Shown: one piece after another, positions 7,633 through 46,279 of the stretch
Position numbering within the stretch: the stretch's first letter is position 1
Layout of the letters: each line of letters opens with the position of its first letter
Source: Nitrospirota bacterium
Lineage (GTDB): Bacteria; Nitrospirota; Thermodesulfovibrionia; Thermodesulfovibrionales; JdFR-85
Direction of reading: 5' to 3'
Assembly (NCBI GenBank): GCA_013151495.1
Contig: JAADIE010000109.1
Coordinates: 1-50,083 of the forward strand
Length of the DNA stretch: 50,083 nucleotides
Notes under the pieces: model-generated
Seen by the model: only the letters and a program-made list of their open reading frames with translations
Told to the model about the DNA's origin: nothing
The model's database searches: none
Made by a program: the position numbers and the translations under genes

Positions 7633-8094
7633 TTACAGCCTGAAAGGACTTTCAGGGTCATCCTCATAACGTACTTCATCGACCGGTTCCCTGCGTCCCC
7701 ATCCGGCATAAAGCCTGTCGGGCAGATTAATGACAAGCCCATCGCCCTGACCCGTGTTCTTATAAGCATGTACCACACCTGGAGGTATCACCACAAGCAT
7801 CCGGTCTACATCATCAATAACCATCCTGTTACCATAGGTTGGTGAGTCAGTTCTATTGTCCCAGAGATAAAGAGTGAATTTCCCTATAAAACAAAAGTAA
7901 TCAGTCTGCTCTTTATGCTCATGGGGCCCTCGTGCAATACCTGGATAGGTCAACGACACATAGGCCATGGCCGGTCTAAAGCCCTCGGGAAGCTCATCCT
8001 CCCTGAAAAGCTCAGTAAGCCAGCCTCTTTTGTCAGTATAAAACTGTAATTCCTTGATGACAACCCCTTCTATTGGGCCTTCTTTAAACTCCAT
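7633..8094 (-). CDS. rfbC: dTDP-4-dehydrorhamnose 3,5-epimerase-like cupin (short form)
   Basis: 153 aa. Features are DKRGWLTELFR, GIARGPHEHK, and a cupin core ending VVHAYKN. It lies between rfbA and rfbB. Confidence 0.78.
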   Translation of the reverse strand: MEFKEGPIEGVVIKELQFYTDKRGWLTELFREDELPEGFRPAMAYVSLTYPGIARGPHEHKEQTDYFCFIGKFTLYLWDNRTDSPTYGNRMVIDDVDRMLVVIPPGVVHAYKNTGQGDGLVINLPDRLYAGWGRREPVDEVRYEDDPESPFRL

Positions 8095-8097
8095 GGT

Positions 8098-9165
8098 TTA
8101 AACCTCCACCACCGTGTCATCACCAATCATCAGTCTCAGTGCCTTGTGTTGTGCACTGTTTTTTATGACTCTGGAGTCTCTACCTATTAAGCTATCTTCA
8201 AGCCTTTCTATTCCTGAAATAAGGCTTCCATTAAGGATGACCGAATGTTCCACCACCGAATCTATTATCCTTACTCCTTCACCAATACTTGTAAAGGGAC
8301 CTATGAAAGAATTCACCACTTCTGCCCCTTCACATATCTTAACAGGCCCACGAATAACCGAGTTTACCACCCTTGCACCCCGGTCTACTTCCACACGGCC
8401 AGTTATTTTTGAGTTGTCATCAACTCTACCCTTGATGTTACGATTGATGTATTCATCAAGCACAATGGTGTTTGCCTGCAAAAGGTCGTCCTTTTTACCT
8501 GTATCAAGCCACCAGCCATCGAGAACCTTGCTTAACACTGGTCTGCCCATATTTATGAGTTCCTGGATTGCATCTGTTATCTCCAGCTCACCACGTTTTG
8601 ATGGCTTGATCCTGTCGATGGCCTCATGAATCCTGGAAGAAAATATATACACACCAACCAGTGCAAGATTTGAGGGTGGTCTTTTGGGCTTTTCAACAAG
8701 CCTTCTAATACTTCCATCTTTGTTTAGGGCTGCCACACCAAACTGCCGCGGATTGTCTACCTCCTTCAGAAAGATCAGGGCATCTGGACGTGCTTTCTTG
8801 AAATTTCTGATTGCATCCTTTACTCCCTGACTTAATAGATTGTCACCAAGATACATAACAAAGTCGGAGTTACCAAGAAAATCCCTGGCAGTTTTGACAG
8901 CATGGGCAAGCCCGAGAGGTTCTTCCTGAAGAATGTATTTTATTCTGAGATTCCAGCTTTTTCCTGTACCCAGGTAGTCCTTAACCTCCTGTCCGGTTTC
9001 AGGCGAAATAATGACTCCCACGCTTTTGATGCCAGCCTGTGCAATGTGATCAAGCACATAACCGAGTATGGGTTTACCAGCGACCGGCACAAGCTGTTTT
9101 GCCATGGTATGGGTAAGGGGCCTGAGTCTGGTGCCCTTCCCTCCGCTGAGGATCAATGCCTTCAT
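8098..9165 (-). CDS. rfbA: glucose-1-phosphate thymidylyltransferase (long form with C-terminal beta-helix-like extension)
   Basis: 355 aa. It has the nucleotidyltransferase signature LSGGKGTRLRPLTHTMAKQLVPV and a hexapeptide-repeat-like C-terminal third. It is the first gene of the rml operon. Confidence 0.85.
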   Translation of the reverse strand: MKALILSGGKGTRLRPLTHTMAKQLVPVAGKPILGYVLDHIAQAGIKSVGVIISPETGQEVKDYLGTGKSWNLRIKYILQEEPLGLAHAVKTARDFLGNSDFVMYLGDNLLSQGVKDAIRNFKKARPDALIFLKEVDNPRQFGVAALNKDGSIRRLVEKPKRPPSNLALVGVYIFSSRIHEAIDRIKPSKRGELEITDAIQELINMGRPVLSKVLDGWWLDTGKKDDLLQANTIVLDEYINRNIKGRVDDNSKITGRVEVDRGARVVNSVIRGPVKICEGAEVVNSFIGPFTSIGEGVRIIDSVVEHSVILNGSLISGIERLEDSLIGRDSRVIKNSAQHKALRLMIGDDTVVEV

Positions 9166-13251: not shown

Positions 13252-13367
13252 CTCTATACTCCCTCAACTCAAATTACTTTATCTTATCAAATCAGAAAAA
13301 GAATAACAAATAATTCTTCCATTAACTTAAATTGCCAATAAAAAAAGGGGGCATAAACTTAATTAAA

Positions 13368-13498
13368 GTAGAAGGGTATAGGGTTTGAGCGGTTTCAGGC
13401 AATCTAATAGCTTCACCAGGAGGGTGAAGTAGATTGCCTGCCTCGGAGCAGGCCATGGATGGCCTGCGAGAATGAGCGAAAAGCCTATACCCTTCTAC
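13368..13498 (+). repeat. structured intergenic element, copy 1 (candidate ncRNA family)
   Basis: A perfect 15-bp closing stem pairs GTAGAAGGGTATAGG with CCTATACCCTTCTAC. The 5' junction is TTTGAGCGGTTT. Hairpin P2 (13396-13440) has an 11-bp stem, a 5'-side bulge ATAG, a 7-bp stem, and loop AGGAG. It is followed by CCTCGGAG, hairpin P3 (CAGGCC-ATGGAT-GGCCTG), and the 3' junction CGAGAATGAGCGAAAAG. Confidence 0.8.
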
Positions 13499-13609
13499 CC
13501 TATTACTGACTGATGAATTAATCGGCAATTTAGAGTTTTATGAAGCGGTTGTAACTTTTCCTGACTTTAAGATATTATTGTTAGTCAGTCTTTTAAGCTG
13601 GAGGCTCTT

Positions 13610-26556: not shown

Positions 26557-26639
26557 AAAAAATTCTAACATTACCTTTAAAAACCTGTCAAAAAGGGAAT
26601 ATACCCCAAAAATGCCAATTAGATTTGTCAGTCAATTGT

Positions 26640-26826
26640 AAGGCAGCAGGGTATAGGCTTTTCGCTCATTCTCGCAGGCCATCCATGGCCTCAGTGCCCC
26701 GAAAAGTCTTTGACTTTTCGGGGGCCCCCTGCTCCGAGGCAGGCAATCTACTTCACCCTCCTGGTGAAGATTTTAGAAAGATTTTAGATTGCCTGAAACC
26801 GCTTAAACCCTATACCCTCCTGCCTT
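26640..26826 (-). repeat. structured intergenic element, copy 2 (opposite orientation to copy 1)
   Basis: The reverse complement shares long identical runs with copy 1: GCGGTTTCAGGCAATCTA, CTTCACCAGGAGGGTGAAGTAGATTGCCTGCCTCGGAGCAGG, and GGCCATGGATGGCCTGCGAGAATGAGCGAAAAGCCTATACCCT. The 18-bp closing stem has one mismatch. There are two insertions relative to copy 1. Confidence 0.8.
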
Positions 26827-26875
26827 TATAATATGGGCTTTTTTCTATCGACAAGTTAGAGTATAATTAAATCTT

Positions 26876-27745
26876 ATGAAAATCCAGAAGGTTATCGATT
26901 TTCATACCCATGTCTTTCCTGATGAGATCGCTCCACGGGCCTTAAAGGCCCTATCAGAGCACTCCGGTCCTTACAAGCCCTGCACCGATGGAACCCTGAG
27001 GGGGCTTCTTGAGTCAATGGACAGGGCAGGGATAGGGCTCAGTGTTGTTGCAAGCATAGCCACTAAACCTGGCCAGGCATGGCCCATACTGGAGTTTTCA
27101 AAAAGGATTAAATCATCCCGAATATACCCTCTGGTTTCTTTTCATCCCCAAAACAGCCTTGACGAGGTCAGAAGGCTGATTGCCGAGGCCAGCCATACCG
27201 GTATCAAGGGGGTAAAGCTCCACCCAATGTATCAGGATTTTTCGATTGACTCAGAAGATATGTTTCCCTACTATGAACTACTGATCAATGAGGGCTTTTT
27301 TGTTGTCTTTCATACAGGCTACGATATTGCCTTCCCTGGTAACCTGCAGGCCTCTGTAGATCGTGTAGCCCGTCTGGCTGAGACCTTCAAAGACCTGGTG
27401 ATAGTAACCACCCATACAGGTGGCTGGAGGCAATGGGAGATGCTAAGTCTTTTAACCGGGTTTGAAAACATCTATACCGACATCTCTATGACCGTTACCG
27501 AGACAGGAAAAGAAAGATTTTCTGAGTTGCTAAAGGGCTTTCCACCAGAGAGAATATTCTTTGGCACCGACAGCCCCTGGACAGATCAAAGGGAGATGGT
27601 GAACATAATAAATGAACTCGACTTTACATCAGAGCTAAAGGAGGCAATACTCTACAAAAACGCCCTTAATTTCCTGAAAAAATACCACCCCACCTCAATC
27701 TATAATCATAAATCTGAAATCACAAATAACAAATCTAAAATCTGA
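26876..27745 (+). CDS. amidohydrolase-family (TIM-barrel metal-dependent hydrolase) protein
   Basis: 289 aa. It has the N-terminal IDFHTHVFPD metal-binding motif and a later HTGGW and GTDSPW. The last ~12 codons are encoded by the heptamer repeat. Confidence 0.72.
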   Translation: MKIQKVIDFHTHVFPDEIAPRALKALSEHSGPYKPCTDGTLRGLLESMDRAGIGLSVVASIATKPGQAWPILEFSKRIKSSRIYPLVSFHPQNSLDEVRRLIAEASHTGIKGVKLHPMYQDFSIDSEDMFPYYELLINEGFFVVFHTGYDIAFPGNLQASVDRVARLAETFKDLVIVTTHTGGWRQWEMLSLLTGFENIYTDISMTVTETGKERFSELLKGFPPERIFFGTDSPWTDQREMVNIINELDFTSELKEAILYKNALNFLKKYHPTSIYNHKSEITNNKSKI

Positions 27746-27786
27746 AATCTTAAATCTTAAATCTTAAATCTAAAATCTTAAATTAT
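27710..27786. repeat. heptanucleotide tandem repeat (AAATCTN) x 11
   Basis: Read directly, the units are AAATCTG AAATCAC AAATAAC AAATCTA AAATCTG AAATCTT AAATCTT AAATCTT AAATCTA AAATCTT AAATTAT. The array spans the stop of the amidohydrolase gene (TGA 27743-27745) and ends 1 nt before the convergent paaK-like stop. Confidence 0.9.
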
Positions 27787-27787
27787 A

Positions 27788-34698: not shown

Positions 34699-34767
34699 CT
34701 CTATTCACCTCCTTTCCTTACAATTTTTATTTTTATTTATATTTTATTTTCATTGGTGTCCGGTAAA

Positions 34768-34944
34768 AAAACAGGGGATATTAATTTTGAGCGGTTTTAA
34801 TTTTGCGAAAGATTTGCCATGGAGGGCAAATCGCAAAATTTCCTCGGAGGCAGACACGGGGTCCCCGAAAAGTCGATAGACTTTTCGGGGTAGAGACTTG
34901 GATGTCTGCCGAGAATGAGACGAAAAATTAATATCCCCTGTTTT
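34768..34944 (+). repeat. structured intergenic element, copy 3 (diverged copy with compensatory stems)
   Basis: A perfect 21-bp closing stem pairs AAAACAGGGGATATTAATTTT with AAAATTAATATCCCCTGTTTT. It has the same junction strings as copies 1 and 2: TTTTGAGCGGTTTT, TCCTCGGAG, and CGAGAATGAGACGAAAAA. P2 has an 8-bp stem, a 5' bulge GAAA, an 8-bp stem, and loop ATGGAG. P3 closes with GCAGACA/TGTCTGC. Confidence 0.78.
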
Positions 34945-34998
34945 ACAATAAGTTATCATCGTTTATCAGACATTAGTGATTTATTTTTTAGATTTATT

Positions 34999-46181: not shown

Positions 46182-46279
46182 GGGAGCGGATGGGGTTCTG
46201 GTGTCCCCCCCGGACTTCAAATCCGGTGTTCCCTGCCACAAGTGGGGAAGGTGGGTTCGATTCCCACACGCTCCCGCCA
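46182..46279 (+). tRNA. selC: tRNA-Sec (anticodon UCA)
   Basis: 98 nt, GGGAGCGG...CGCTCCC-G-CCA. The anticodon arm is CCGGA-CTTCAAA-TCCGG with TCA at 46217-46219. The extra arm has an 8-bp stem (TTCCCTGC/GTGGGGAA, including G-U pairs) with loop CACAA. The T arm is GTGGG-TTCGATT-CCCAC. The 7-8 bp acceptor ends with an encoded CCA. It was folded by hand. Confidence 0.9.

Follow-up and report, generated by a model that had tools for sequence, protein, structure and literature searches.

A 131-nt sequence in an intergenic gap of a Nitrospirota genome (GenBank assembly GCA_013151495.1, contig JAADIE010000109.1, of which the 50,083 nt analysed are referred to here as the window) folds into a long closing stem that encloses two hairpins, and it occurs in the window three times. 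An initial annotation, made from the window alone, described it as a structured intergenic element of no RNA family that it recognised, which raises the question of what such a unit is and why its fold is kept. The structured element is real, but it is not a stand-alone intergenic RNA gene. It is the interior, or core, of a small non-autonomous transposon, a MITE (miniature inverted-repeat transposable element), whose terminal inverted repeats are those of the IS1380 family and which is present or absent at orthologous sites. The MITE label is thus correct, yet it does not explain the structure away, and on balance the core appears to be kept as a structured RNA made from one particular strand.

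Fold, family and covariation

The core has the shape of a Y, in which a long rod (helix P1 and an irregular extension) forks into the hairpins P2 and P3, with the junction strings J1, J2 and J3 between the helices (coordinates in Table 1). The extension of the rod comprises UUU/AAA, a tandem G.A/A.G and GC/GC, followed, by inspection, by G.A, G.G, U.U and UU/AA, and P3 rests on an invariant CUCG/CGAG base with a GAG bulge. Folded as RNA, copy 1 reaches a minimum free energy of -74.6 kcal/mol versus -38.1 +/- 4.1 kcal/mol in dinucleotide shuffles (z = -8.8), and the z-scores of the other two window copies are -8.1 and -11.4. The coordinates and anatomy first assigned to copy 1 are correct, as are the two tiers, 4-nt bulge and AGGAG loop of P2; only the register of that helix differs, the 11 + 7 bp of the initial annotation being drawn by RNAfold as 10 + 8 bp of the same helix. 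Both of the pairings that it proposed at the junctions are supported by natural variants. The CUCG/CGAG pairing is invariant in 90 sequences, and copies that read TGAG or CGGG still pair via wobble; the two facing GAGCG strings have a GAGCUC variant (loci L026, L044 and L054) in which the tandem G.A/A.G becomes G-C/A-U, making both G.A pairs Watson-Crick. GAGCGG is not found in every copy: copy 2 reads AAGCGG.

The family was defined by a pattern scan (J2-N(30-60)-J1) over 185,579 species genomes, which returned at least 116 loci. About 104 of these are true members, all of them in metagenome-assembled genomes (MAGs) of Nitrospirota/Thermodesulfovibrionia and on several contigs per MAG, and 12 among the matches listed are chance matches inside genes of unrelated phyla. 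Although it was absent from the search pattern, CGAGAATGA occurs within 140 nt in 94 among the matches listed, and in the remaining true members it is either changed to a variant that still allows wobble pairing (TGAG, CGGG) or interrupted by a small palindrome within J3. A covariance model built from 90 aligned members then recovered 106 copies in 0.75 Mb of loci (the first 100 loci hold ~105), frequently with 2-3 copies per 8 kb, including 14 missed by the seed pattern and essentially all on one model strand. In the window, it recovered exactly three matches, the number that the initial annotation had counted (67-75 bits; E 5e-18 to 9e-16), and the J3 string likewise occurs three times there versus 0.36 expected. 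The core and the terminal repeat were absent from the viral contigs scanned.

Across the family the cargo measures 105-175 nt. P2 and P3 may exceed 60 nt or be minimal, as with a P3 filler of 5 nt or the P2 of L172, which has 11 nt. The small palindromes of J3 (CCTGCCTGCCGGCAGGCAGG; TCCGCCT..GGCGGA) lie between CGAG and AATGAGCG in L025, L047 and L087 and in L096, L111 and L049, where they split the most conserved string of the core. In addition, a divergent subfamily (L014 158-281 and L040 7229-7352) shows a coordinated change in J1 (CUGAACGGAUUU) and J3 (UGAGAAUGAUGUGUAAG) and coexists in one MAG with copies of the window type.

As first described, the junction sequences are fixed and the helices vary and covary. 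Covariation extends to every P1 pair, and the junction strings hardly vary. RNAalifold recovers P1, the P2 base and the CUCG/CGAG base of P3, with double compensatory changes at 20/27 pairs (20/29 when the J1/J3 G-C pairs are added). Paired cells make up 95.6% of the total, versus 37-55% when partners are slid by 1-3 columns, double changes number 319 versus 32-67, and the covariation score is 0.417 versus at most 0.092; none of 500 shuffles reached any of the observed values. Within the irregular extension, UUU/AAA has 38 one-sided U.G changes, together with C-G compensation in L058, L006, L095 and L068.

The absence of a known family also stands. Rfam 15 at gathering thresholds matched only a selenocysteine tRNA (tRNA-Sec) in the whole window; at E <= 10 it returned no match for the copy 1 region and, for a majority-type copy (L153), one chance-level match of 15.8 bits versus a threshold of 47.9 bits. 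Literature searches that covered the motif strings as well as repeats and MITEs of Thermodesulfovibrio and Nitrospirota gave nothing relevant, and no description of the element turned up in the searchable literature. Several known structures were considered and rejected. A kink-turn or k-junction, which has a three-nucleotide bulge and then a G.A (1b.1n) and an A.G (2b.2n) pair, would fit the bulged strand CGAG-AAU-GA-GC, but the facing 1n position in J1 is G and not A (GC-GG-UUU) in essentially all copies. A hammerhead has the core strings CUGANGA and GAA and a UH cleavage site around its three-way junction. The junction strands of the structured strand read GGUUU, NC and AAUGA, no CUGANGA occurs in the junction on either strand and there is no Rfam match, so the core is not a hammerhead. 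5S rRNA has the same Y topology and, by eye, a partial CGAGAGUAGG resemblance, but it does not fit and the Rfam 5S model gives no match. An intrinsic terminator or cis-regulatory leader was set aside because the window copies have no terminator-like sites, their neighbours are unrelated and only 28/98 copies face a downstream gene. A terminator on the complement, formed by the P3 hairpin and a CUUUUGCC tract in majority copies, was considered but set aside: the helices are selected on the other strand and the window subfamily has no U tract.

Terminal repeats, the IS1380 partner and mobility

The 131 nt had been taken as the repeat unit, but the unit is longer (Table 1). Similarity between copies 1 and 2 extends past P1 on both sides, and the decayed ends of copy 1 (TAAATTGCCAAT on the left, ATGAATTAATCGGCAATTTA on the right) are both homologous to the family repeat TAACCCGGATTATTCAT. 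Outer inverted repeats of the form (Y)TAA-CCCGGATTATTCAYAAA are present in about a third of copies. The inverted repeat TAACCCGGATTATTCAYAAA, which has a background rate of 3.4%, lies 13-14 nt outside each P1 arm; of 100 copies, 18 have it at both arms, 17 at a single arm and 65 at neither. Complete units end in CCCGGATTATTCAYAAA and measure ~180-190 bp, or up to ~290 bp in one MAG, CAZXCW01 (L002, L008, L013, L059 and L100), where they have an extra inner inverted repeat (AAAAATTTATTT) and variant ends (TGCATTATYTGGGYTA); judging by these units, the outer parts of the element look modular.

No transposase or other recurrent protein was found beside the copies by clustering of open reading frames (ORFs) around the 116 loci, nor did the genome loci contain pairs of terminal repeats at spacings of 400-4000 bp. 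When metagenomes were scanned with the 20-mer terminal repeat, 120 loci were returned, among them nine repeat-bounded full-length elements of 1650-1753 bp that belong to the IS1380 family. For example, ORF 355-1800 of L138 (481 aa) scores 311.9 bits against NF033539 (NCBIfam, IS1380 family transposase) and 373.7 bits against PF13701, and relatives of this transposase (30-70% identity) adjoin the repeat in 14 loci. The MITE terminal repeat is identical over 20 nt to that of the elements encoding NF033539 transposases. Against this pairing, the transposase loci are anonymous metagenome contigs rather than demonstrably core-carrying genomes.

The target duplications point to the same partner. When 4-mers made up of one flanking base and the three outermost bases were compared at the outer ends, 42/64 repeat-bounded elements had identical direct 4-mers, versus 17.3 +/- 3.3 by permutation (maximum 29), a count that refers to these 64 elements, the three window copies not being resolvable for duplication. 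The duplicated 4-mers are TTAA (18), CTAA (12), TTAG (10) and others (2), with the consensus YTAR. Because these outer 4-mers are direct repeats, they form a 4-bp YTAR duplication, within which the element proper runs from CCC to GGG; the typical IS1380 target duplication is 4-5 bp. IS1380 transposases form the prokaryotic outgroup in piggyBac trees, and piggyBac elements themselves have CCC... ends and make TTAA duplications with TTAG and CTAA as minor variants (PMC10813416). An assignment to the IS630/Tc1 type, which reads the ends as TA duplications, was discarded in favour of the 4-bp YTAR duplication and the IS1380 partner. REP/REPIN sequences (repetitive extragenic palindromes mobilised by RAYT transposases), which are simple palindromes with a conserved GTAG head and an associated Y1 transposase and have neither terminal repeats nor a target duplication, were also rejected: only copy 1 starts with GTAG, P1 sequences vary, the terminal repeats and target duplication are of DDE type and no transposase recurs alongside.

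The same terminal repeat bounds many other MITEs of 102-630 bp whose interiors are unrelated to the core, and since only 8/80 metagenome repeat loci contain the core, it is one of several cargos. Examples of such unrelated interiors are L118 623-808, L187 3825-4014, L192 5409-5598, L131 4329-4526, L191 339-518, L143 2574-2747, L129 and L119. They are mostly long hairpins, several of which fold 8-21 kcal/mol better on one strand.

Comparison of orthologous sites shows the element both filled and empty. The genes that flank an empty 3-nt site in the window (Table 1) are separated by ~168 nt in L068 (4459-4626) and in L003, with a family member between them, and the gap of copy 3 has an empty orthologue of ~110 nt in L045. 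L006 and L081 have flanks that are 98-99% identical and different family members, with 66% identity, at the same site. Between the same two loci (L006 1540-2990 versus L081 4950-6320) a tRNA-containing segment is inverted, an element fragment is rearranged and the upstream family member differs, which suggests that the repeats drive recent rearrangements. The units are also small (180-290 bp), dispersed (3 copies in the 50-kb window) and without coding capacity, as reading frames are not conserved. Terminal repeats shared with IS1380 elements, YTAR duplications and filled or empty orthologous sites together identify the element as a MITE, and it can be said with high confidence that an IS1380-type MITE family has spread in Thermodesulfovibrionia genomes.

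The initial annotation had regarded copies that keep the termini and lose the internal junctions as MITE behaviour. The opposite is observed, in that the junctions are better preserved than the termini, and they persist in copies that have lost their terminal repeats.

Maintenance of the core

If the palindromic interior of the MITE were kept only as double-stranded DNA, its two strands should be equivalent, and they are not. In a count that gave neither kind preference, on the strand that runs from J1 to J3, G.U mismatches outnumber A.C mismatches by 120:19 in P1, 24:8 in P2 and 16:3 in P3. The ratio is 60:10 for copies whose two neighbouring genes both lie opposite to the structured strand and 21:3 for copies whose neighbours both share its strand; since transcription- or replication-coupled deamination would flip the bias between these orientation classes, it is ruled out as the source of the G.U pairs. 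Among private mismatches, for which the three nearest relatives are all Watson-Crick, the ratio is 60:17, and G.U exceeds A.C in 18/23 columns, so the bias is not one inherited state. Single-strand transposition of the IS200/IS605 kind was rejected as its source in view of the terminal repeats and target duplication, and it also predicts co-orientation with leading-strand genes, the opposite of what is observed. The structured strand is predicted to be more stable than its complement in 98/106 copies, by a mean of 7.4 kcal/mol (Wilcoxon p = 3e-18). It is purine-rich (58% outside P1), and stops are consequently few on the complement, where 88/106 copies have at least one stop-free frame across the core versus 39/106 on the structured strand, a property that will yield false small-ORF calls in annotations.

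The copies are also non-randomly oriented. They occupy almost the entire intergenic gap, beside genes that are unrelated to each other, and of those that lie between co-directional genes 44 run antisense and 15 sense (p = 2e-4). For 70/98 copies the gene downstream lies on the opposite strand, and 12 copies in 5'-untranslated-region positions are in the sense orientation. Core identity reaches 94% and 97% in two of four orthologous pairs, versus 78-88% for the mostly coding flanks.

IS1380-family transposases would move the element in trans, by cut-and-paste of double-stranded DNA. As cut-and-paste DDE transposition of double-stranded DNA gives no reason for a 6:1 strand bias, for purine-purine junction pairs on one strand or for junctions that outlast the termini, we infer that the core is maintained at the RNA level, and judge it somewhat more likely than not that the structured strand is transcribed and the core preserved as a structured RNA. 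Such an RNA would probably provide some protein with a docking or processing module. How it affects neighbouring genes would depend on orientation, as with ERIC and Correia elements, and it is proposed that this is why the surviving copies are mostly antisense.

Several observations weigh against maintenance as RNA. A promoter scan of the three window gaps gave a match at copy 1 only, with no equivalent at copies 2 and 3, and none of the three gaps contains terminator-like sites. With most copies antisense to their neighbours, read-through transcripts would carry the less structured complement. Hairpin-templated correction of DNA can also yield compensatory changes in inverted repeats. Seeding the search with exact J1 and J2 strings inflates the apparent invariance of these two, an effect that leaves J3 and the copies found only by the model unforced. 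In two of the four orthologous pairs, the core is less conserved than its flanks or has been replaced (69% and 66% identity), and the family has therefore been shaped by turnover and not only by constraint; one of these pairs, L098/L038, shows four apparent compensatory changes in P1. Finally, MITEs with the same terminal repeat and unrelated interiors also fold asymmetrically, so strand asymmetry may belong to these elements in general and not specifically to this cargo.

The main rival, which is unlikely though not negligible, is selfish DNA alone, with a single-stranded or extruded DNA hairpin aiding transposition by joining the ends, or hairpin-templated repair keeping the arms complementary, and the junctions serving as internal DNA sites for the transposase or a host factor. 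It would account for a MITE with IS1380-type ends, for unrelated cargos that share these ends and are likewise long hairpins of strand-asymmetric stability, for the lack of a consistent promoter and for the replacement of copies at one site between genomes with near-identical flanks. J1 and J3 both contain TGAGCG in direct orientation, as internal binding sites might, and the structured strand remains more stable than its complement in 103/106 copies when energies are computed with DNA parameters. However, a double-stranded or cruciform intermediate equates G.T on one strand with A.C on the other and cannot give the 6:1 bias, and single strands are not known to be used in DDE transposition of the IS1380/piggyBac type. 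The spacing of J1 and J3, which varies from ~75 to 150 nt, is a poor fit to cooperative DNA binding, and it is the junctions that outlast the terminal repeats required for transposition. A further proposal is that the Y-shaped core belongs to an unrecognised class of functional RNA, self-cleaving or protein-sequestering, for which the piggyBac-like IS1380 MITE is the vehicle, the antisense bias being the scar of selection against such activity in host mRNAs; this is rather improbable. A related reading, a catalytic or autonomous RNA that only rides on the MITE, such as a new class of self-cleaving ribozyme whose sense copies cut host mRNAs and were lost, is very improbable. The three-way architecture with near-invariant junction nucleotides, the distal helices that vary freely and tolerate insertions, the multicopy association with a mobile element, the bias against sense copies and the lack of an Rfam match would all suit a ribozyme. 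However, comparison with Rfam models and inspection revealed no similarity to hammerhead (no CUGANGA...GAAA core), twister, twister-sister, pistol, hatchet, hairpin or HDV ribozymes, no cleavage-site signature could be identified and sense copies do exist, 15 in co-directional pairs and 12 in 5'-untranslated-region positions.

Two readings concern what individual copies might encode or bind. The window subfamily could be a CsrA-type sponge or CsrA-responsive cis element, in which P2 and P3 would present two GGA loops at a fixed distance to a CsrA dimer. GGA occurs in both apical loops in 11 copies and in one loop in 12 more, with all three window copies among these; the loops read CAGGAUG, CAUGGAUG or AGGAGG, and the invariant J2 also contains GGA. 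CAGGAUG, the CsrB repeat, is found in L041 and L091, where ACAGGAUGU matches the CsrA consensus RUACARGGAUGU from systematic evolution of ligands by exponential enrichment. However, 75/98 parsed copies have no GGA loop, and CsrA binding is thus not the general function of the family; AGGAGG is equally a Shine-Dalgarno look-alike, and no csrA gene was found in 0.85 Mb of sequence, which says nothing about whole genomes. The CsrA reading is quite unlikely for the window subfamily, where the GGA loops (AGGAGG, CAUGGAUG) are a lead rather than a result, as a possible CsrA-type or Shine-Dalgarno-like signature. A small protein of ~68 aa on the complementary strand is effectively refuted. ORFs of 68-69 aa do span all three window copies, and the complement is mostly stop-free, but the frame diverges between copies 1 and 2 after HPPGE, P2 and P3 lengths vary by non-multiples of 3, substitutions follow base pairing and not codons, and the scarcity of stops follows from purine richness. 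The initial annotation had already called the three ORFs (13322-13528, 26625-26831 and 34750-34959) spurious; all lie on the complementary strand in frames that differ between copies, and the peptide strings they share are translation artefacts of the repeat. Maintenance as RNA on an IS1380-type MITE is the preferred reading.

Window copies and relation to known elements

The three window copies differ in sequence and setting (Table 1). Copy 1 lies in the divergent gap between a fumarase alpha-subunit gene and an unassigned gene, and its promoter-like match points at the first base of P1, near which transcription of the structured strand would start. Copy 2 is a member of the same subfamily and sits in a divergent gap that separates the genes for a ParA/MinD-like ATPase and an amidohydrolase. 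Its P2 contains 11 additional nt (26770-26795), locally duplicated from a ATTTTAGA unit that resembles those of the AT-rich run described below, and its P3 contains a nested palindrome. Copy 3 runs antisense to its two neighbours, an HtrA-like gene and a PIN-TRAM gene, both on the minus strand, and its P1, P2 and P3 sequences differ from those of copy 1 while the junction strings are the same, apart from one extra A in J3. The nested palindromes of copies 2 and 3, 27-28 nt long and with G/C-rich flanks, sit at unlike positions and are also found in L007 and L040; they look like a second, tiny mobile element landing inside the MITE core.

Table 1. Positions of the element and associated features in the window
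Feature	Position	Strand	Remarks
Copy 1, structured core	13368..13498	+	covariance-model match 13370-13496, 75 bits, E = 5.5e-18
P1 of copy 1	13368-13382 with 13484-13498		15 bp, perfect
J1 of copy 1	13384-13395		TTTGAGCGGTTT
P2 of copy 1	13396-13440		two-tier hairpin, 4-nt 5' bulge, loop AGGAG
J2 of copy 1	13441-13448		CCTCGGAG
P3 of copy 1	13449-13466		loop AUGGAU
J3 of copy 1	13467-13483		CGAGAATGAGCGAAAAG
Copy 1, full repeat unit	13328..13532	+	approximate boundaries; decayed terminal inverted repeats
Promoter-like match	13332..13359	+	TTGCCA-16 nt-TAAACT, sigma-70-like; consensus match only
Copy 2, structured core	26640..26826	-	model match 26645-26821, 66.8 bits; full unit ~26609-26858
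Nested palindrome, copy 2	26697..26723		CCCCGAAAAGTC-TTT-GACTTTTCGGGG, inserted in 5' strand of P3
Copy 3, structured core	34768..34944	+	model match 34772-34940, 68.8 bits
Nested palindrome, copy 3	34863..34890		CCCCGAAAAGTC-GATA-GACTTTTCGGGG, inserted in P3 loop
Empty site	8095..8097		3 nt between genes 7633-8094 and 8098-9165

Two further features of the window were noted. At 27697-27787, short AT-rich repeats (AAATCTN-like units with spacings of 14 and 21 nt) form a run that overlaps the 3' end of ORF 26876-27745 and continues downstream, and the tRNA-Sec gene (Rfam RF01852, 75.7 bits) lies at 46182-46275 (+), its presence indicating that the organism uses selenocysteine.

The element is a new family of a known kind, the bacterial MITEs that fold as RNA, with an interior that is unusually elaborate and constrained and an IS1380/piggyBac-like partner. 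MITEs with terminal repeats that form stem-loops as RNA are established in bacteria, with effects of RNase III or RNase E and of orientation documented for Correia and ERIC elements; specifically, ERIC has orientation-dependent effects on neighbouring transcripts, Correia is processed by RNase III, and RUP is tied to a specific insertion sequence via shared terminal repeats (PMC2229807). Like Correia/NEMIS of Neisseria, ERIC/IRU of enterobacteria and RUP of S. pneumoniae, the window family is 100-200 bp long, intergenic and multicopy, has terminal inverted repeats, with a TA either in the terminus or in the target, and is non-coding but contains accidental ORFs. Those elements fold into long stem-loops when transcribed, and the core described here is predicted to do likewise. 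It differs from them in having an IS1380-family partner, 4-bp YTAR duplications and CCC...GGG ends, in an interior with a three-way fold, near-invariant non-Watson-Crick junctions, a G.U strand bias and a 3:1 antisense bias, and in its occurrence in Thermodesulfovibrionia. It shares its terminal repeat with full-length elements of the IS1380 family, to which ISEcp1, ISPme1 and IS1380 belong, and its 4-bp duplication (mostly TTAA, CTAA or TTAG) and CCC start mirror those of piggyBac transposons, the eukaryotic relatives of that family; unlike IS1380 insertion sequences, it has no transposase and its interior is unrelated (no model match in L138). Outward promoters are known for ISEcp1 and ISPme1 (PMC9330008).

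The likeness to functional RNAs is partial. Mobile-element-associated ribozymes (hammerhead, twister and others) also have a three-way junction, conserved junction nucleotides, variable helices that tolerate insertions and many copies per genome, but the core has no covariance-model match at E <= 10 and no hammerhead core strings. The window subfamily shares GGA-loop hairpins (CAGGAUG and similar) with the CsrB/RsmZ sponge RNAs; unlike these, it has only two sites per unit, most family members have none, and it sits in a transposon rather than a dedicated small RNA gene, with no defined promoter or terminator.

For annotation, the family explains a recurrent, highly structured intergenic repeat in Thermodesulfovibrionia MAGs that, if left unrecognised, would be annotated as small ORFs or taken for a riboswitch or small RNA. 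For mobile DNA, it adds a large set of MITEs with several unrelated cargos, tied to IS1380-family elements with piggyBac-like YTAR duplications. RNA biology gains a defined candidate, represented by over 100 natural variants, in which covariation is clear, the non-canonical junctions are invariant and selection is strand-specific. If the core is only a by-product of palindromic DNA, it would serve as a caution that MITE interiors can mimic every computational hallmark of structured RNA; if the MITE is instead the vehicle of a functional RNA, a transposon would be spreading an active RNA module through Thermodesulfovibrionia genomes.

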